A stretch of 64,000 nucleotides of DNA from Candidatus Saccharimonadales bacterium (GTDB taxonomy: Bacteria; Patescibacteriota; Saccharimonadia; Saccharimonadales; JBBQAJ01): contig JBBRAK010000004.1 of assembly GCA_038206875.1 (NCBI GenBank), forward strand, positions 3,174-67,173, in the 5' to 3' direction. Each line of letters starts with the position of its first letter. The stretch's first letter is position 1. Below the pieces are notes generated by a model. It did no database searches. It was given only the letters and a program-made list of their open reading frames with translations, and was not told the DNA's origin. The position numbers and the translations under genes are program-made. Shown here piece by piece: positions 19,775-51,895 of this stretch.

Positions 19775-20356
19775 ATGGCAGAATTTGGTCAAGACCGAAG
19801 CAATAGACCCAATCGTGATAATCGTCGCGACGGGGTTCAAGAAGAAAAACAATTTGATGAAAGAGTTGTGCATATTGATCGTGTTGCGCGAGTGGTAAAA
19901 GGCGGTCGTCGTTTTAGATTTAGAGCACTTGTTGTTGTTGGTGATCATAAAGGTAAAATTGGAATTGGAATCGCCAAAGGGGCCGACGTAACAACCGCAA
20001 TAACAAAAGCTGTCGAAGTTGCAAAAAAGCATTTTGTCCATATTCATATCGTAAACGGAACCGTTCCACATGAATCAGAAGTAAAAGTTGGTGGAGCAAG
20101 GATTCTTATAAAACCCGCAGTACTAGGTACTGGATTGATTGCTGGAGGTGTAGTTAGAACTGTACTCGAAGTTGCAGGAATTAGTAATGTTTTGTCAAAA
20201 TCACTAGGTTCTTCAAACAAAATAAACACTGCATATGCAACACTTGCTGCACTTCAAGCTATCGAGCATCCTGACAAATGGATTACTATCCAAAATAAGC
20301 CCAAAAAAGGAGTACCACCATCTCCTAAGACTACCGACGAAAAGGTAAAAGTATGA
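19775..20356 (+). CDS. rpsE: 30S ribosomal protein S5
   Basis: VVHIDRVARVVKGGRRFRFRALVVVGD. Confidence 0.97.
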   Translation: MAEFGQDRSNRPNRDNRRDGVQEEKQFDERVVHIDRVARVVKGGRRFRFRALVVVGDHKGKIGIGIAKGADVTTAITKAVEVAKKHFVHIHIVNGTVPHESEVKVGGARILIKPAVLGTGLIAGGVVRTVLEVAGISNVLSKSLGSSNKINTAYATLAALQAIEHPDKWITIQNKPKKGVPPSPKTTDEKVKV

Positions 20357-26241: not shown

Positions 26242-26645
26242 TGGCAGATAAAGCAAAACATTATTTTTACGCACTGGGGCGACGTAAAAGCTCCACATCT
26301 AGAGTCAGACTTATGAATGGCAAGGGTTCAGTTGTTATTAACGGCAAGCCAGCAAACGAATATTTAGCGGATAGTAAATCCCTACTTCATGAACTTGAAC
26401 GTCCGTTCATAGCACTCGAGATTCAGAATAAATACGATGTCAGCGCTGTAGTCTCAGGAGGAGGACACAGTAGCCAGGTAGACGCAATTCGCTTAGGAAT
26501 ATCCAAAGCTCTGGCAGTAATGAATGAAGATTTACGAAGTACTCTAAAAAGAGCTGACATGCTAGGTCGTGACCCTAGAGAAAAAGAACGAAAGAAGTTC
26601 GGTCTCAAGGGCGCCAGAAAACAGCGCCAATTCACCAAACGGTAG
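26238..26645 (+). CDS. rpsI: 30S ribosomal protein S9
   Basis: YFYALGRRKSSTSRVRL...RKQRQFTKR. Confidence 0.97.
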   Translation: MMADKAKHYFYALGRRKSSTSRVRLMNGKGSVVINGKPANEYLADSKSLLHELERPFIALEIQNKYDVSAVVSGGGHSSQVDAIRLGISKALAVMNEDLRSTLKRADMLGRDPREKERKKFGLKGARKQRQFTKR

Positions 26646-26671
26646 ACAACTATTGACAGACATGGTATAAT
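26643..26671 (+). promoter_or_regulatory. promoter of the aromatic-operon leader
   Basis: TAGACA (26643-26648), 17-nt spacer, TGG + TATAAT (26663-26671). An ATG lies 7 nt after the -10 box. Confidence 0.6.
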
Positions 26672-26678
26672 GTATCTT

Positions 26679-26744
26679 ATGTTAAGAGTAAGTTTTTGGA
26701 ACTACGCATACTTTATCAACCCCCGAGTGGCGACGAGTTCATAG
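26679..26744 (+). CDS. candidate leaderless leader peptide MLRVSFWNYAYFINPRVATSS (aromatic codon run)
   Basis: 21 codons. Codons 6-12 read F W N Y A Y F. No SD; the ATG sits at the predicted transcription start. Followed by a terminator, then the aroG-pheA-tyrA-like genes. Confidence 0.55.
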   Translation: MLRVSFWNYAYFINPRVATSS

Positions 26745-26767
26745 CGATTGCAAAATCACCCAAGAAC

Positions 26768-26791
26768 AAAACCGCCAAGAGGCGGTTTTTT
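26768..26791 (+). terminator. intrinsic terminator (attenuator) upstream of the DAHP synthase gene
   Basis: AAAACCGCC AAGA GGCGGTTTTTT. Lies 27 nt before the aroG-like start. Confidence 0.8.
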
Positions 26792-26817
26792 AATTAAAGG
26801 GAACAAGGATAAGAATA

Positions 26818-28089
26818 ATGTCATTTGAAACTAGCGAGTTACAGGCACCAGTGCTGGACGAAGCAATGCGAATTAAAGACGTACTGTTAACCGCTCGTGA
26901 AGACATCGAGACCGCGCACACGAGAATTGAAGACAGTATTCTGCAAGGTGCGCGAGTGCGCTTAGGATACTCAGAGTTTGAACCCGGCGATATGTCAGAG
27001 TTGGTAGATGCAAGAGTAACAAAGCAACCCATGGTTACACCGAGAATGGTCACTGGCGTACTCCCATTGTCCAATCGGAGCGCATTAACCACTCTCGAGG
27101 CCCGCAAAACATTAGCTGACATACATGCTCACCGCAATTTCAAGCTCGCTGTAGGCATAGGTGAATGTTCTGTTCGTGATCCAGAAGCAACGCTCGAATA
27201 TACTAGAAACGTAGTTCGATGGCAACCAATGTTTCCAAACCTTCTACTTATGCAACGTGCATTTTTAGAAAAACCAAGAACACCCAAAAAAATTGGAGGC
27301 GAGATGCCTTGGAAAGGCTTCATTTATGACCCACTCTTAGATGGCTCAAACGACATCAATTTAGGTGTAATAGCGTCCAGACTATTGTTATGTCGAATTA
27401 CTGACATGGGCGTACCAACACTGAAAGAACAGCTAAATGCTCTGACGCCACAGTTTCTTAATGGTTTAGTAACTCAGGATAATATAGGTGCACGCTCAGT
27501 TGAAGACCAAAAGGGTATGGAATATGCTTCTGGGACATCGGCGGTTGTTGGAGAAAAAAATAATCTCGAAGGAGATATAGAAGTTGCGATGCAGGCTGCT
27601 GCCTCCGCGCATGGCGAACATGCATTCTTGGGAATAGATGATTATGGAAATATATGTCTAGTGCGAACTACAGGCAACGATACAGCGCATGTAATATTAC
27701 GTGGTGGAAAAAACGGTCCCAATTATGAAGCTGAACACGTCGAAGAAGCGCGTCAATTGGCAGAAAAATACGGCCTTGAATTTTCTCTAGATATTGATGC
27801 AAATCATGGAAATAGTGGTAAAAAAGCCAAGAACCAACTAATAGTGGTTAGGAATGTCGCATCACAAATTGAAGCAGGAGAACCAGCAATCACTGGTGTG
27901 CAGATGGAAACAAATTTAGTAGAAGGCAAACAACCATTTGAGGTTGGCATGGATTTAAGTCTTCTCGTGTACGGGCAAAGCATTACTGATGAATGCATGG
28001 GAATTCCCGATACATTAGAAAGTCTCAGCATTCTAGATGAAGCTGCTGCAAAACGACGCGAGCGTGCAAACGTGATTGGGATCACGTAA
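26818..28089 (+). CDS. aroG: 3-deoxy-7-phosphoheptulonate (DAHP) synthase, class I-alpha like, with ~60-aa N-terminal extension
   Basis: Matches E. coli AroG-type blocks: VGIGECSVRDPEATLEY, FLEKPRT...WKGFIYDP, ILRGGKNGPNYEAEHV, DANHGNSGK, YGQSITDECMG. Confidence 0.85.
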   Translation: MSFETSELQAPVLDEAMRIKDVLLTAREDIETAHTRIEDSILQGARVRLGYSEFEPGDMSELVDARVTKQPMVTPRMVTGVLPLSNRSALTTLEARKTLADIHAHRNFKLAVGIGECSVRDPEATLEYTRNVVRWQPMFPNLLLMQRAFLEKPRTPKKIGGEMPWKGFIYDPLLDGSNDINLGVIASRLLLCRITDMGVPTLKEQLNALTPQFLNGLVTQDNIGARSVEDQKGMEYASGTSAVVGEKNNLEGDIEVAMQAAASAHGEHAFLGIDDYGNICLVRTTGNDTAHVILRGGKNGPNYEAEHVEEARQLAEKYGLEFSLDIDANHGNSGKKAKNQLIVVRNVASQIEAGEPAITGVQMETNLVEGKQPFEVGMDLSLLVYGQSITDECMGIPDTLESLSILDEAAAKRRERANVIGIT

Positions 28090-29282
28090 TGACAGAGTTA
28101 GCTGTTGGAATTCAAGGTGGGGCGGGTAGTTTCCATCACGAAACTGGGCTCGAATATTTTGGAGCTGGGAACGTTGATAGGTTTGTATCATTCCCAGACC
28201 ATGATGCAATGCTTAGTAACTTATTTGACAGATACTCTGACTTGCACGTTGCAATTATTGCGGTTGATAATAATACTTCAGGTAGAGTCCTAAGCGCAGT
28301 TGAAGCACTTAGCAAACAAACGGACGTTCGGGTCGTGGGCAGTATTACTCGGAGAATTAATCAGTATTTGTGGGTTTATCCAGGTCACGATCCAGATGAT
28401 GTTGAAGCTGTCATTTCTCAACAACCTGCATTGGATCAGTGTGAACAAAATATTGCTGCCGCTGGGTATACGCCAGAGGATTACTTTGATACAGCTGAAG
28501 CAGCGCGTCGAATAAGTACTTCAAAGGGGAAATACAAGAACTACAAGTCCACTGGTGCAATTGCATCACAAACGGCCGGTGAACTATATGGGCTGACTAT
28601 GGTTCGTAAGTTTAACGACAATGAAAACAATGCTACAAAATTTTGGGTTATATCTGATAGCGAGACTAACACTGAAGGGACACATTCCGCACTCACATTT
28701 GAAGTACCAGACATTAAGGGTGGGCTCTTAAGAGCGGTAGAGAGAATATGGCAGGAATGCGGTTTTAATTTGACTGACATTGATAGCCATCTTGCATCTG
28801 CACTTGACGGTGACCGAGGCTTTTTCGCAGAAATTACTCAAGATGATCCTAGCGTGATGCGCGAGTTGCTTATAAAATATCTTGTAGCTGATGGATATAA
28901 GCCTCACGTTCTGGGCAACTACACACCAAAGGGTGAAGATCTTGAGGTTATTGATGAAAACCATCAGATACCTCCAGCTCTTAGGCATGACAAATGGGCT
29001 GGAAGAAAGGGGCTGATATATCCAGAAGGGTCAACAAGATTGTATGTTGAAACAAATCATAAATCTGGTGCACTCTATAGTGTTCTGGGCTGCCTCGCGT
29101 CATGCAACTTAGTTGATCTAGGACGTCCTGTTAATCCGAAAGACAACAGATTTAACAGAGGTTTCTATATAGTACTCGACCCAACCACGCCGAGTATTAT
29201 TGAAAAATTAGCAACAGCAACAATTAAAGCACAGGGCTTTCATGTTGAAATTGTTGAAGATGGAGAGAAAGTAGTAGCATGA
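28089..29282 (+). CDS. pheA: prephenate dehydratase with two ACT-like domains
   Basis: PDT blocks VGIQGGAGSFHHE, SQQPALDQCEQ, GAIASQTAGELYGL, NATKFWVIS. ACT1 HSALTFEVPDIKGGLL...NLTDIDSH. ACT2 TRLYVETNHKSGALYSVLG...LGRPVNP...RGFYIVLD. Confidence 0.8.
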   Translation: MTELAVGIQGGAGSFHHETGLEYFGAGNVDRFVSFPDHDAMLSNLFDRYSDLHVAIIAVDNNTSGRVLSAVEALSKQTDVRVVGSITRRINQYLWVYPGHDPDDVEAVISQQPALDQCEQNIAAAGYTPEDYFDTAEAARRISTSKGKYKNYKSTGAIASQTAGELYGLTMVRKFNDNENNATKFWVISDSETNTEGTHSALTFEVPDIKGGLLRAVERIWQECGFNLTDIDSHLASALDGDRGFFAEITQDDPSVMRELLIKYLVADGYKPHVLGNYTPKGEDLEVIDENHQIPPALRHDKWAGRKGLIYPEGSTRLYVETNHKSGALYSVLGCLASCNLVDLGRPVNPKDNRFNRGFYIVLDPTTPSIIEKLATATIKAQGFHVEIVEDGEKVVA

Positions 29283-30052
29283 GTAGCACTGAGGTTATCG
29301 GTATCGTTGGAGTGTATGGTGATTTGGGACGTCAGATGGTTGTGCAGGTAGGGAATGCTTCTCAAAATGTGATAGGATACGATATCCCTAGTGCCGTGCC
29401 AGTGTCAGCACGATTTGGAATAGACTCAAAACTTTCAGCATCTGCGCTGACTACACAGCCAGAATTGGTAGATAATTTAGGGGATTTAATCCATGAGTCT
29501 AGCATAGTTCATTGGTGCGCCCCGATTGGTGCACTAAAATCTCTAGGAGAAGTATGTGAAGATACTATGGTTGTATTACATGATGGTGTGATGCATACTA
29601 GCACTTCAGCAGAGAAAAGATTGCTACAACGGCCAAATTTCGCTGGCCGAATTGCAATAGTGCACTGTTTGATGAATCCCGAGAAGACGGTTATTATTGA
29701 CTCTGATGCACCGGCTATGGAAGAAGCTTTTGAGCACTTCCTTGGTATTGGGCTTAGGCCCGACCTAATGACTGTCGAGGAACATGATTATATGATGGCC
29801 GTAATGCAGGGTCTGTTTGCGGTGGCTATTCAAGGAACAAGCGGTGGACGCTTGGATGAATACCAACTGGCTGGTCGGATGACTCCTTCAGGGTTGCATT
29901 TTAAAGAAGCAAGAGATTCCAGAGATTCTAAATGGACACATCAAACCAAAGAATCTATATTTAGAAACCCCGAACTGAAAAAGCTAGTACGCGTACTTCT
30001 CGATTTGCTTGAAAATCCAAACCAGCCAAGACACGATGAGCTTGACATATAA
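29279..30052 (+). CDS. tyrA: prephenate/arogenate dehydrogenase-like
   Basis: IGIVGVYGDLGRQM (compare TyrA IVGGGGQMGR), IVHCLMNP (compare LHPMFGP), TVEEHDYMMAVMQGL (compare AVEHDQNMAFIQAL). Confidence 0.6.
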   Translation: MSSTEVIGIVGVYGDLGRQMVVQVGNASQNVIGYDIPSAVPVSARFGIDSKLSASALTTQPELVDNLGDLIHESSIVHWCAPIGALKSLGEVCEDTMVVLHDGVMHTSTSAEKRLLQRPNFAGRIAIVHCLMNPEKTVIIDSDAPAMEEAFEHFLGIGLRPDLMTVEEHDYMMAVMQGLFAVAIQGTSGGRLDEYQLAGRMTPSGLHFKEARDSRDSKWTHQTKESIFRNPELKKLVRVLLDLLENPNQPRHDELDI

Positions 30053-30071
30053 ATTGGTAGTGTGATAGTAT
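30042..30071 (+). promoter_or_regulatory. promoter of the trp-operon leader
   Basis: TTGACA (30042-30047), 18-nt spacer with TG (30063-30064), TAGTAT (30066-30071). An ATG lies 7 nt after the -10 box. Confidence 0.6.
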
Positions 30072-30078
30072 TGCTCTT

Positions 30079-30168
30079 ATGTCTAATTTACAAGATGATC
30101 AAATAATACCTAACCTTGGTCAGCAAGGTGCATGGCGAAACTCTCAGGATACATGGGAGTCTATTTAG
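30079..30168 (+). CDS. candidate leaderless leader peptide MSNLQDDQIIPNLGQQGAWRNSQDTWESI (two Trp codons)
   Basis: 29 codons. TGG at 30133-30135 and 30154-30156. Its 3' end (30155-30164) is complementary to the terminator 5' arm (30196-30204). Confidence 0.5.
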   Translation: MSNLQDDQIIPNLGQQGAWRNSQDTWESI

Positions 30169-30197
30169 TTTTGTAAATTTTTAGTAATGCAATTTAT

Positions 30198-30219
30198 AGC
30201 TCCCGAAAGGGAGTTTTTT
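30198..30219 (+). terminator. intrinsic terminator (attenuator) upstream of hyp-trpB-trpA-trpS
   Basis: AGCTCCC GAAA GGGAGTT followed by TTTT. Lies 18 nt before the next ATG, which has an AAGGAG RBS. Confidence 0.8.
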
Positions 30220-30236: not shown

Positions 30237-30710
30237 ATGAGTGAATTTGAACAACAACGAAGCTATGTTAGGTCGTTTGGTCCTTACATAGGAGACGAGA
30301 TTGAGTTTTACCAATCCGATGAAGTTACTAATCAAACAGGTCAGGGACCTAAGGAGTATGTTGCGACATTTTTAGAGCGAAATATGTATTACGGTATTAT
30401 GAATACTTCAGTGAGCGAATATGCTCAAAATCTCTATGCTTTTCCAGCCCCTCCAGATGAGATGAGTCTGCGTGATTACCACCTTCTGGTTCGAAATTTA
30501 GCGATTGGACTATCCTACGAAGATGAACGTTACGCAGAGCTAGAAGCCTTCGTTTTGGGGATAAGAAACGGAACTCTCGAAGAAGATAGAAAAGCAGGCA
30601 AGGCTTACACAGATTTTAACCCGAGTCAAGGCGACTACAATTTTTTTGAACGGGCTAGAACGGCGATTGAAGGCGCGGGCGGATACTGCTCGGATGGAGG
30701 AATGATATGA
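30237..30710 (+). CDS. hypothetical 157-aa Trp-free, Tyr-rich protein; first cistron of the trp operon
   Basis: AAGGAG RBS. ATGA overlap with trpB. No W and 14 Y residues. No recognisable motif. Confidence 0.7.
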   Translation: MSEFEQQRSYVRSFGPYIGDEIEFYQSDEVTNQTGQGPKEYVATFLERNMYYGIMNTSVSEYAQNLYAFPAPPDEMSLRDYHLLVRNLAIGLSYEDERYAELEAFVLGIRNGTLEEDRKAGKAYTDFNPSQGDYNFFERARTAIEGAGGYCSDGGMI

Positions 30711-37891: not shown

Positions 37892-37977
37892 TGGTGCAGG
37901 GTGTAGGATTCGAACCTACGAAGGCATAAGCCGACAGATTTACAGTCTGTTGTGTTTGACCGCTTCACTAACCCTGC
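37892..37977 (-). tRNA. tRNA-Tyr (GTA), long variable arm, CCA encoded
   Basis: Manual fold: acceptor GCAGGGT/ACCCTGC, anticodon loop CTGTAAA, T-arm GTAGG TTCGAAT CCTAC. 86 nt. Confidence 0.93.
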
Positions 37978-37978
37978 G

Positions 37979-38148
37979 TATGGAGCCACCTGTCGGATAT
38001 CGCACGGCTACGCCGTACTCCTTCCTGCGATGCTCGTAAACAAGAAATATATTTCATGTTTTCTGCGCTTCTCGTCCGCCGAACCTTCGGTTCTCATCAG
38101 ATCATTCGCATAATTATTGTAACAAGTATTTACTTCTTACAATAATTA
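37979..38148 (-). repeat. insert downstream of tRNA-Thr(TGT) ending in an exact 18-20-nt copy of the tRNA 3' end
   Basis: TATGGAGCCACCTGTCGGAT (37979-37998) is identical to 38147-38166. The identity breaks inside GATATC, at the same T-loop position as the Tyr-linked insert. Confidence 0.75.
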
Positions 38149-38149
38149 T
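38110..38149 (-). other. long AT-rich hairpin immediately after tRNA-Thr(TGT)
   Basis: ATAATTATTGTAA (38110-38122) / TTACAATAATTAT (38137-38149), a perfect 13-bp inverted repeat. Confidence 0.6.
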
Positions 38150-38225
38150 GGAGCCACCTGTCGGATTCGAACCGACGACCTACTGTTTACAAAACAGTCG
38201 CTCTAACCAACTGAGCTAAGGTGGC
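38149..38225 (-). tRNA. tRNA-Thr (TGT), CCA encoded
   Basis: Manual fold: acceptor GCCACCT/AGGTGGC, anticodon loop TTTGTAA, T-arm GTCGG TTCGAAT CCGAC. 77 nt. Confidence 0.93.
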
Positions 38226-38243
38226 ATGTAACAGTTCTAAAGT

Positions 38244-38270
38244 GTAGCAAATACTCAGTATTTTTGCTAC
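38244..38270. promoter_or_regulatory. palindrome between the divergent tRNA genes
   Basis: GTAGCAAATACT C AGTATTTTTGCTAC (8-12 bp arms) in the 64-nt divergent promoter region. Confidence 0.3.
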
Positions 38271-38289
38271 TATGCCTTGGTTAAATTTT

Positions 38290-38364
38290 GCCGTCGTAGC
38301 TCAGTGGTAGAGCATCGCCATGGTAAGGCGGGGGTCAGGAGTTCAAGTCTCCTCGACGGCTCCA
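38290..38364 (+). tRNA. tRNA-Thr (GGT), CCA encoded
   Basis: Manual fold: acceptor GCCGTCG/CGACGGC, anticodon loop ATGGTAA, T-arm AGGAG TTCAAGT CTCCT. 75 nt. Confidence 0.93.
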
Positions 38365-38367
38365 GTA

Positions 38368-38396
38368 TTGCATAGTACATCCTAATCTGTTAAAAT
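38368..38396 (+). promoter_or_regulatory. rpmG promoter
   Basis: TTGCAT (38368-38373), 17-nt spacer, TAAAAT (38391-38396). ATG lies 10 nt downstream. Confidence 0.55.
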
Positions 38397-38406
38397 CTAA
38401 TCCCAT

Positions 38407-38610
38407 ATGGCTAAAAAAGGCGGAAAAAGAAAGATAATTGGCTTGGTGTCGGAAGAGTCTGGGCACAGGCACTATTACACTCGTAAAAACACTATGAACA
38501 CACCCGACAAACTTGAACTCAAGAAATACGACCCAGTACTACGGAAACACGTTTTGTACGTAGAAACCAAAAAGTCTCTAGGTCGTAACGAAGTAAAGAA
38601 AAAGAAGTAA
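38407..38610 (+). CDS. rpmG: 50S ribosomal protein L33 (Cys-free type, Lys-rich C-terminal tail)
   Basis: [34 protein letters not shown]. Confidence 0.93.
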
Positions 38611-38709
38611 TATAGCAAACTTGGGTAAGTATTTTGTTTTTTAGCAGACGATCAAGCTAATGACAAAACATCGTAAATCGGCTATGATAACTCCGTACGA
38701 TGACACTAT

Positions 38710-38786
38710 AGGGGCGTAGCTCAGCTGGTTAGAGCGTTGGTCTCCAAAACCAAAGGCCGCGGGTTCGAATCCCTCCGCCCCTGCCA
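38710..38786 (+). tRNA. tRNA-Trp (CCA), CCA end encoded
   Basis: Manual fold: acceptor AGGGGCG/CGCCCCT, anticodon loop CTCCAAA, T-loop TTCGAAT (one C-U mismatch in the T stem). Confidence 0.88.
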
Positions 38787-51683: not shown

Positions 51684-51835
51684 TTGACCACGTAGTGTTT
51701 CTCTGTTAAGCTCTACTCACGTTACCAAAGACAGCGACGACTGTAAAAGGTTTGATAATGTCGCCTAGGTGCAAGCTAACTTTTTGTTTGTAAGCATGTT
51801 TTTATGGCCCTTTGGTAACACCAAAGGGCCTTTTT
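51684..51835 (+). promoter_or_regulatory. rplJ (L10) leader with antiterminator/terminator
   Basis: TTGACC (51684-51689), 17-nt spacer, TAAGCT (51707-51712). GTTACCAAAG (51721-51730) is perfectly complementary to CTTTGGTAAC (51810-51819) in the terminator GGCCCTTTGG TAACA CCAAAGGGCC TTTTT (51806-51835). Confidence 0.65.
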
Positions 51836-51895
51836 GGTAGTTTTTGGAGTTGACAGGTCGAAAACTTCATACTAAATAATCTAAAGGAGAAGCCC

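Follow-up and report, generated by a model that had tools for sequence, protein, structure and literature searches.

The DNA analysed here is a 64,000-nucleotide (nt) stretch of a Candidatus Saccharimonadales contig (JBBRAK010000004.1), which we refer to as the window. Within it, the ribosomal protein gene rpsI is followed by an operon that opens with a class I DAHP synthase (DAHPS), and the sequence between the two genes holds a promoter, a short open reading frame (ORF) with a run of aromatic codons, and an intrinsic terminator (Table 1). From the window alone this arrangement had been proposed to be an attenuator driven by a leaderless leader peptide, a proposal that we call the original prediction. 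Comparison with related loci indicates that the element probably does act by ribosome-mediated, leader-peptide transcription attenuation of the aromatic operon, with a transcript that most likely starts at the leader AUG.

Table 1. Positions in the window of the leader element, the genes behind it and a second leader of the same design.
Feature	Position	Strand	Remarks
−35 hexamer TAGACA	26643..26648	+	overlaps the rpsI stop codon TAG (26643-45)
Extended −10 TGgTATAAT	26663..26671	+	hexamer 26666-26671; 17 nt after the −35; 11/12 plus TG
Leader ORF MLRVSFWNYAYFINPRVATSS	26679..26744	+	21 codons plus TAG (26742-26744); ATG exactly 7 nt past the −10
Candidate regulatory codons F6 W7 (N) Y9 (A) Y11 F12	26694..26714	+	aromatic in 5/7 codons; F, W and Y all present
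Region 1, CGCAUACUU	26705..26713	+	5' strand of the predicted anti-antiterminator hairpin in the minimum free energy (MFE) fold; inside the aromatic run
Region 2, GAGUGGCG	26725..26732	+	predicted partner of region 1 or, through UGGCG (26728-32), of region 3
Region 3, AAAACCGCC	26768..26777	+	terminator 5' arm (26768-76), plus A26777 for the antiterminator
Region 4, GGCGGUUUU	26781..26791	+	terminator 3' arm (26781-89, with GGCGG) and U tract
Shine-Dalgarno (SD) sequence AAGGA of DAHPS	26805..26809	+	8 nt before the ATG; 3' of the terminator, not sequestered
Class I DAHP synthase (aroFGH type)	26818..28089	+	Pfam PF00793, 1e-43; TIGR00034, 281 bits against a cutoff of 173
Prephenate dehydratase with long C-terminal part	28089..29282	+	PF00800, 1e-31; start overlaps the DAHPS stop
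257-amino-acid (aa) Rossmann dehydrogenase ORF	29279..30052	+	putative TyrA; overlaps prephenate dehydratase
Second element of the same design	30042..30219	+	TTGACA (30042), 18 nt, TAGTAT, 7 nt, ATG (30079)

The promoter, leader ORF, aromatic run and terminator all lie where the original prediction had placed them. The promoter is the top promoter-like site in the 16 kb that we scanned (22-38 kb of the window), a region in which such sites show no overall excess (36, against 34.9 in shuffled sequence). The leader lacks an SD sequence because the 7 nt between the −10 and the ATG are too short to hold one, and we infer that transcription starts at or beside A26679, the first letter of the ORF. 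The program-made ORF list gives a 24-codon version of the leader from an ATG at 26670; that ATG sits within the −10 hexamer. The terminator, AAAACCGCC-AAGA-GGCGGUUUU with a U tract to 26791, has a folding energy of −13.3 kcal/mol. Our automated terminator scan missed the hairpin at 26768-91, probably because the T-run was consumed by stem extension, and folding confirmed it. A copy of the region identical to the window is present in a Logan assembly (L001).

The original prediction needs correction as to the weight of the aromatic run by itself. Across its six frames the window has 37 places with at least five aromatic codons in seven, and F, W and Y are all represented at 17 of these; the run is thus not statistically unusual there, and its significance comes from conservation. 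The layout as a whole is rarer: a −10 with, 6-8 nt on, a start codon that opens an ORF of 8-40 codons followed by a terminator was found only at 26679 and 30079 in the 64 kb, and both of these sites precede aromatic operons.

Conservation of the leader element

We collected loci by DAHPS homology, without reference to the leader, which gave a protein-sampled set of the window and 10 further loci. DAHPS identity was 69% for L002, 62% for L003, 53-56% for L084, L085 and L086, 51% for L087, 47% for both L004 and L089, 45% for L107 and 44% for L108. A single upstream layout was present in all 11 loci, consisting of a promoter, 7-8 nt, an ATG, an aromatic ORF of 20-25 codons, an antiterminator, the stop codon and a terminator. 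The promoters follow the scheme TTGACx, 16-18 nt, TAxxxT, then 7 nt (8 in L108) to the ATG, and the terminators have the form ACCGCC-loop-GGCGGU(5-7). Each related ORF contains adjacent aromatic codons, usually Tyr-Trp-Phe, and repeats the terminator 3' arm within its own sequence.

The predicted leader peptides are MSTTTQNCAYWFASFKKAIV (L002), MSTAQSNQYWFTGTSRGGLFCKRA (L003), MSTQSSKQYWFTGITDGGSFCA (L004), MSKQSTTQYWFTDTSRGGLLNLFA (L084), MSKAQINQYWFTDTHYGGLLCAHA (L085), MSTAQNNQSWFTGTTRGGQFCVCA (L086), MSRFQDGSPYWFSGSARGGRLRLNA (L087), MSIAKSNYTWFTDLYDDGCFNVHL (L089), MSSNQQNCAYWFTPYYPSGYLAVSA (L107) and MLGSNVSYQFWFTELTRAVAA (L108). At codons 9-12 the relatives read Y/S/T-W-F or something close to it, and what they have in common with the window peptide is the aromatic-codon cluster and not the remaining sequence. 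The aromatic stretches themselves differ, reading FWNYAYF in the window, AYWFASF in L002, YWFTPYY in L107 and YQFWF in L108. Loss of the small ORF or of its aromatic codons from relatives with the same operon would have spoken against attenuation; neither had been lost in any of them.

In 8 of the 11 protein-sampled loci the element follows the ribosomal L13-S9 block. It lies directly after rpsI in seven of these, and in L107 one unannotated ORF of 245 aa intervenes. Elsewhere it is found after clpP (L084), divergent from def (L089) or in a divergent intergenic region (L108). Since the element occurs in these non-rpsI contexts, it belongs to the downstream gene and not to rpsI.

We additionally scanned metagenomes with a DNA pattern, ATGTC-N16-(Q Y W F T/S G/D), that specified these codons only and left the promoter, antiterminator and terminator unspecified. 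The scan yielded 15 further loci; promoter, antiterminator and terminator are found in every one, with 6-7 nt between −10 and ATG. The family then comprises 25 distinct loci, 15 of them picked by the peptide pattern. A TTGACx −35 and a −10 spaced by 16-18 nt are present in 25/25; from −10 to ATG, 23 loci have 7 nt, one has 6 nt and one has 8 nt, and a pyrimidine precedes the A. Aromatic codons are present in all 25 related leaders. Thus the reading as an attenuator, as originally put forward, gains support from the fixed promoter-7 nt-ATG spacing and from the retention of aromatic codons where the peptide differs.

The genes behind the terminators are consistently tied to aromatic amino acids. 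In the metagenome loci the terminator precedes a class I DAHPS of the same clade, a class II DAHPS (L097, PF01474), a DAHP_synth_1-like protein (L095) or small ORFs followed by tryptophanyl-tRNA synthetase (trpS; L091, L092, L096, L098, L100 and L105). That the element accompanies DAHPS or trpS in differing neighbourhoods also fits attenuation of these genes.

A scan of genome contigs with a DAHPS alignment was swamped by universal DAHPS motifs; it gave a single useful locus from Saccharibacteria, and the 79 that came from other phyla were reused as negative controls. The family covariance model, R1, scores L107 at 53 bits and L108 at 39 bits, neither of which was used in training, and in 74 DAHPS loci from other phyla no match falls below E = 0.05. 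Rfam 15 does not contain the family: a whole-window scan at gathering thresholds returns only tRNAs and the L10 leader, and five canonical family loci gave no Rfam match at E <= 1.

These comparisons bear on a different reading of the window, in which the hairpin is the terminator of the ribosomal-protein operon, the promoter is fortuitous or constitutive and the ORF arose by chance. The terminator does follow rpsI, promoter-like sites are no commoner than in shuffled sequence and aromatic runs abound, all as such an accident would require. We nevertheless regard it as contradicted by the comparisons and as the least credible of the alternatives considered. A promoter upstream of a terminator makes sense only for attenuation, the whole layout recurs in 25 loci that include the non-rpsI contexts, the antiterminator shifts in step with the terminator (see below), and the covariance model splits the clade loci from the 74 controls. 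Nor are the loci copies of a single sequence duplicated in assembly, since their proteins are 44-69% identical and their contexts differ.

A second alternative accepts a leader-peptide attenuator and disputes that it is leaderless. Transcription would begin elsewhere, by read-through from rplM-rpsI or a few nt upstream of the ATG, and ribosomes would initiate independently of an SD or re-initiate. Read-through RNA must exist, since rpsI and the leader are not separated by a terminator in the window; moreover, the L13-S9 block precedes the element in most protein-sampled loci, and the proposed start rests on promoter consensus. Set against this are the near-consensus promoter of every family member and its 7-nt distance from the ATG in 23/25, and the fact that the promoter accompanies the element away from rpsI (L084, L089, L108 and the metagenome loci). 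The 7 nt hold no SD-like sequence. The same geometry (−35, −10, 7 nt, ATG) is found at nine sites in the window against 2.4 in shuffles, among them the candidate leaderless mRNAs of two ordinary ORFs (163 aa, start 45861 +; 166 aa, start 50788 −) whose ATG stands about 7 nt behind a −10 with a TTGACA-like −35, which hints that leaderless transcripts may not be confined to leaders. We therefore consider a start elsewhere unlikely and retain an AUG-first transcript as the preferred reading.

Alternative pairings and the proposed switch

We counted paired positions in an alignment (A2) of 23 sequences, using the same helices shifted along the alignment ('slid') as a control. The family fold consists of P0 (AACCA/UGGUU, a hairpin with the Trp codon inside it), the 1:2 hairpin and the terminator, and RNAalifold independently recovers all three. 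The 1:2 hairpin has the form ACCGRCAC-N5-GUGGCGGU. Region 1 (ACCGRCAC) begins at the codon after Phe, and region 2 (GUGGCGGU) also complements region 3 (ACCGCCAC), the terminator 5' arm; pairing of regions 2 and 3 (the antiterminator) and pairing within the 1:2 hairpin and terminator are mutually exclusive.

Both alternatives are conserved. For P0, 1:2 and the terminator combined, 93.7% of alignment cells are paired, against 24-50% when slid, and five pairs are changed on both sides. The 1:2 helix alone is paired in 92.5% of cells with three pairs changed on both sides, and the terminator helix in 95%. For the 2:3 antiterminator the paired fraction is 92.9% (29-77% in the slid controls), and two pairs are compensated. 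L002 alters regions 2, 3 and 4 together (GGCGAU / AUCGCC / GGCGAU), and in L087 a change of GUG to GCG accompanies one of CAC to CGC. From these counts the conservation of both pairings appears well supported, and the proof that covariation adds is modest.

The original prediction had named UGGCG (26728-32) and CGCCA (26773-77) as a weak antiterminator. Both segments are exactly where it put them, and their pairing (5 bp, −5.0 kcal/mol alone and longer in constrained folds) turns out to be the weak local form of a 7-8 bp pairing that all relatives possess, with compensatory changes.

The sequence between ATG and terminator is constrained in two ways. In L096, L101 and L105 the ORF is frameshifted so that region 2 is read V-A-V instead of R-G-G, with identical nucleotides; the constraint on the ORF is thus at the level of RNA in its 3' half and of aromatic codons in its 5' half. 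In frame 0 the stop codon is invariably located at nt 60-75, in most cases 33-39 nt (up to 46) ahead of region 4, and the two other frames have their first stops spread widely, from nt 4 to beyond 112. The three indels that precede the Trp codon are of +3, +3 and −9 nt, all multiples of three, and synonymous variation is seen at Tyr (TAT/TAC), Gln (CAA/CAG) and Thr (ACC/ACA). The upkeep of the ORF, the place of its stop and this synonymous variation are indirect signs that the leader is translated.

Two further features of the RNA stand outside the simple four-segment model, which does not explain them. An outer helix, CAGAAC/GUUCUG (nt 13-18 and 57-62, for example in L094 and L098), encloses P0 and 1:2 in many members, and the last sense codon and stop, GCAUAA, are conserved.

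Conservation of this kind could also reflect a switch made of RNA alone, in which the leader binds a metabolite, a protein or uncharged tRNA and the short ORF is incidental. Regions 1-4 and P0 are strongly conserved as nucleotides, region 2 is kept regardless of frame in the three frameshifted loci, and 2:3 forms without a ribosome in half of the loci at equilibrium. An incidental ORF would not, however, be expected to keep its aromatic codons where both nucleotide and peptide sequence differ (the window, L002, L107 and L108), to remain open in every member with its stop at so regular a distance from region 4, or to have its ATG fixed at a distance of 7 nt from the −10 in 23/25. A ligand pocket would not be expected to vary freely, as do the 18 nt that separate ATGTC from the aromatic codons. 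Additionally, there is no Rfam match, T-box included, even at E <= 1-10, and an element of about 115 nt is too small for a T-box. An RNA-only switch accordingly seems improbable to us.

We likewise weighed a nascent-peptide sensor of the TnaC type, in which a free aromatic amino acid, and not tRNA charging, would be the signal for the sequence ..QYWFT.. to stall the ribosome. As such a sensor would need, the peptide of the main clade, MS..QNNQYWFT(D/G)T.RGG, shows fair conservation. That conservation is largely accounted for by the search pattern and by RNA pairing, with ACC-GRC corresponding to region 1 and CGU-GGC-GGU to region 2; the loci sampled without the pattern and the window share aromatic residues only, and the frameshifted variants preserve the RNA and not the peptide. 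Its regulatory sign would also be wrong, because stalling by an abundant amino acid would induce biosynthesis when it is not needed. We hold this alternative to be very improbable, and return to attenuation by a ribosome that responds to tRNA charging.

To represent the translating ribosome, we imposed its footprint on the window RNA as unpaired stretches. The free RNA folds into 1:2 (−5.3 kcal/mol for this hairpin) and the terminator, at −29.7 kcal/mol in total (z = −3.5), with an outer helix that joins GUUUUUGGAACU (26692-703) to 26736-40 and 26760-67. A ribosome at the stop codon covers 26727-56 and hence region 2. In RNAs ending before region 4, UGGCG:CGCCA belongs to the MFE structure in each of the stalled states, and is missing from it in the free RNA and with a ribosome at the stop, in agreement with the original prediction that a stalled ribosome frees the antiterminator segment and an at-stop ribosome covers it. 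For the full-length RNA, equilibrium favours antitermination when F6, W7 or Y9 is in the A site (−20.1 against −18.6 kcal/mol for the terminated structure).

The mechanism that we propose would operate as follows. RNA polymerase would start about 7 nt past the −10 of the promoter at 26643-26671, as its geometry suggests, and the resulting AUG-first RNA would load a ribosome without an SD. When the Phe-, Trp- and Tyr-tRNAs are charged, the ribosome would reach the stop at 26742, with region 2 covered or re-paired with region 1; region 3 (26768-77) would then pair with region 4 (26781-89), and the hairpin and U tract would end transcription before DAHPS. If any one of the aromatic tRNAs is poorly charged, the ribosome would stall on F6, W7, Y9, Y11 or F12 and cover region 1. 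The free region 2 would pair with region 3 once this is made, the terminator would not form, and polymerase would read through into DAHPS, prephenate dehydratase and the TyrA-like gene. Were the leader not translated at all, 1:2 and 3:4 would both form and transcription would stop. The same terminator would presumably also stop read-through from the upstream rplM-rpsI operon. On the best reading of the locus, then, the attenuator controls DAHPS, prephenate dehydratase and a probable divergent TyrA.

Several points weigh against this interpretation. It is drawn throughout from sequence, and the start of transcription, the translation of the ORF and the response to amino acids are predictions. 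Most family members have just one Tyr, one Trp and one Phe codon, and classical leaders have more. We found no demonstration of leaderless initiation in candidate phyla radiation (CPR) bacteria in the literature searched. Covariation is limited, with regions 2-4 nearly invariant and an RNAalifold covariation term of about 0, and fifteen sequences owe their selection to the peptide pattern. The antiterminator of the window is, at 5 bp, the weakest of the family. The expectation that stalling anywhere on the aromatic run would antiterminate was borne out for F6, W7 and Y9 and failed for Y11 and F12, where the terminated structure is favoured at equilibrium (−18.3 against about −12 kcal/mol). Across the family, the full-length RNA forms the terminator in 20/25 free, 21/25 at-stop and 12/25 stalled states, and in free RNAs ending before region 4 the 2:3 pairing already beats 1:2 in 13/25. 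Because equilibrium folds separate the states so poorly, the decision must be kinetic, with the local 1:2 hairpin forming first, as in classical attenuators. The folding evidence is mixed: it supports the potential for both structures and cannot decide the mechanism.

Downstream genes and a second leader

The original prediction had named the genes behind the terminator as DAHP synthase, prephenate dehydratase and prephenate dehydrogenase. Pfam and NCBIfam confirm the first two, and the third is just probable. Direct sequence searches of Pfam, NCBIfam and the PDB with the 257-aa ORF returned no match, and a word-index search gave one homologue only. An exhaustive HMMER search assembled a family of 127 representatives, many of which match generic NAD-binding domains; 1 of 45 matches PDH_N/PDH_C, and the family profile matches the plant prephenate dehydrogenase 5t95 at 5e-5. 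An AlphaFold model built from two sequences (low confidence, pLDDT 54) has bacterial TyrA as its top Foldseek matches (E = 2e-5, TM about 0.4). The ORF is probably a divergent prephenate or arogenate dehydrogenase (TyrA), and the label 'prephenate dehydrogenase' is plausible but not established.

Ahead of the DAHP_synth_1 domain, the DAHP synthases of the clade are extended at the N terminus by about 70-100 aa (consensus TPILEESARIKD...LGY; window 26818-27120, residues 1-100), and this extension may be a regulatory domain. In three relatives (L087 4271-4537, L089 4292-4549 and L108 4282-4545) a small gene of the Trp_repressor family (PF01371) lies between the attenuated DAHPS and trpC-trpB-trpA, which suggests a second, protein-based layer of control.

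The second element of the window (Table 1) has a leader ORF of 29 codons, MSNLQDDQIIPNLGQQGAWRNSQDTWESI, with two Trp codons. Its 1:2 hairpin is ACUCUCA/UGGGAGU and its terminator, AGCUCCC-GAAA-GGGAGUU-U, lies at 30198-30219, ahead of a 157-aa ORF, trpB, trpA and trpS. The element is conserved in L002 (7534-7680, leader MSKIYGNTINRSISTQTTWQNSHNVRESI). It is probably a Trp-specific attenuator, judging from its codons and the genes behind it, and the genome appears to use one leaderless-leader design twice, for the common pathway with the Phe/Tyr branch and for Trp.

Small ORFs without a Pfam match stand right after attenuators and before trpB or trpS. They include window 30237-30710 and ORFs in L091 and L092 (+19, 123 aa), L096 (129 aa), L098 (70 aa), L100 (82 aa) and L105 (83 aa). 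By their position, these ORFs would be co-regulated with the aromatic genes.

Other observations concern the source and content of the window. Homologues of the DAHPS are attributed to organisms named, for instance, Candidatus Saccharimonadales or Saccharibacteria. The genes for S5 (19775-20356) and L15 (20353-20823) overlap and no L30 gene separates them, a CPR hallmark that would fit a genome from the CPR/Patescibacteria. The Rfam L10_leader match lies upstream of rplJ at 51707-51844 (54.3 bits, above the gathering score), and four tRNA genes lie at 37895-38783.

Relation to known leaders and implications

Enterobacterial leaders such as trpL, pheL (RF01859, Phe_leader) and the pheST leader have the same short ORF with pathway codons, a four-segment RNA and a terminator before the first gene. 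The present leaders differ from them in the predicted absence of a 5' untranslated region and SD, and in a mixed Tyr/Trp/Phe set, usually one codon each, where the enterobacterial leaders have a run for a single amino acid. Additionally, region 2 lies well upstream of the stop in the main clade, so termination there would rely on 1:2 re-forming behind the ribosome and not, as in enterobacterial leaders, on coverage of region 2; in the window, unlike the main clade, a ribosome at the stop would cover region 2.

The element does not belong to a catalogued family that we compared. Against Rfam Phe_leader (RF01859) the window scores 18.6 bits, where gathering is 55 (E = 1.4). The T-box riboswitch (RF00230) gives no match at permissive E-values, and about 115 nt is too short for a T-box and holds no Stem I or specifier architecture. 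For TRAP-like and other known leader families there was no relevant Rfam match at gathering or permissive thresholds. With the aromatic T-boxes of Firmicutes, the element shares a choice between antiterminator and terminator that reports tRNA charging ahead of aromatic and tRNA-synthetase genes; sensing here would instead run through the translating ribosome.

The closest functional analogue is aroR of Corynebacterium glutamicum, described as a Phe-Tyr-Phe leader before aroF (DAHP synthase) that works by ribosome stalling (Neshat et al. 2014, as summarised in PMC11802643 and PMC7356990). The description of aroR in PMC11802643 reports no Trp codon and gives only Phe limitation as effective. It too places adjacent aromatic codons before a DAHPS operon, in Actinobacteria, and the comparison is one of functional description only.

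Leaderless leader peptides have been documented in Actinobacteria, and in this respect the original prediction, which had thought such a leader notable in a CPR-like genome, does not describe something unprecedented. In Streptomyces lividans the leaders trpL1 (before trpE), trpL2 (before trpS), leuL and ilvL, among others, have transcription starts mapped at the start codon (PMC8079986), and mycobacteria have attenuators with leaderless polycysteine upstream ORFs (bioRxiv 10.1101/834739). Like the present family, the actinobacterial leaders have a hairpin and U-tract downstream and include a biosynthetic gene and trpS among their targets. Their starts were mapped by RNA-seq, whereas ours are predicted from promoter geometry, and they differ in specificity and have no sequence relation to the family.

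Two of our control loci, both proteobacterial, L023 from Parasutterella muris (2809-2940, MRAAQFFFYYFSFYFSLSAEKDTLHA) and L026 from Pseudoxanthomonas sp. (2800-2925, MNAYRARYYFWFPKPTAEEGARSP), also have aromatic-rich ORFs before a class I DAHPS. They resemble the family in their mixed aromatic codons, in a GGCGG-type segment in or just after the ORF and in a CCGCC/GGCGG-U terminator directly before DAHPS. They differ in peptide and promoter, and model R1 matches them weakly (E = 0.14 and 0.89, below significance). These loci suggest that an aromatic leader for DAHPS is a general solution, either widespread or convergent. As types, leaderless leaders and aromatic leaders for DAHPS were both known before; the novelty lies in the family, typically a sensor with one each of Tyr, Trp and Phe.

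Saccharibacteria and other CPR bacteria are usually described as lacking amino-acid biosynthesis, and to our knowledge almost no gene-regulation mechanisms are known in them. In the literature that we searched, neither attenuators nor leaderless mRNAs are reported for Saccharibacteria/Patescibacteria (CPR). Our analysis adds to this group a well-supported regulatory RNA and leader-peptide family. We lean, by a little, toward regarding it as an uncatalogued cis-regulatory family across Saccharibacteria, in which an adjacent Tyr-Trp-Phe triplet on an AUG-first transcript would integrate the charging of three aromatic tRNAs and control several DAHPS classes as well as trpS. A mixed sensor of this kind before a common-pathway enzyme is a logical variant of the single-amino-acid leaders. 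The covariance model can be used to annotate such leaders and to flag the small ORFs and trpS genes under their control.

The promoter-7 nt-AUG geometry is, additionally, indirect evidence for translation of leaderless mRNA and for translation-transcription coupling in Saccharibacteria. If the proposed mechanism holds, sensing in these ultra-small bacteria with reduced ribosomes makes use of efficient leaderless initiation (of the 70S type) and of tight coupling, and the family would offer a handle on the aromatic regulon of an uncultivated phylum, with the entry enzyme of the shikimate pathway under its control.

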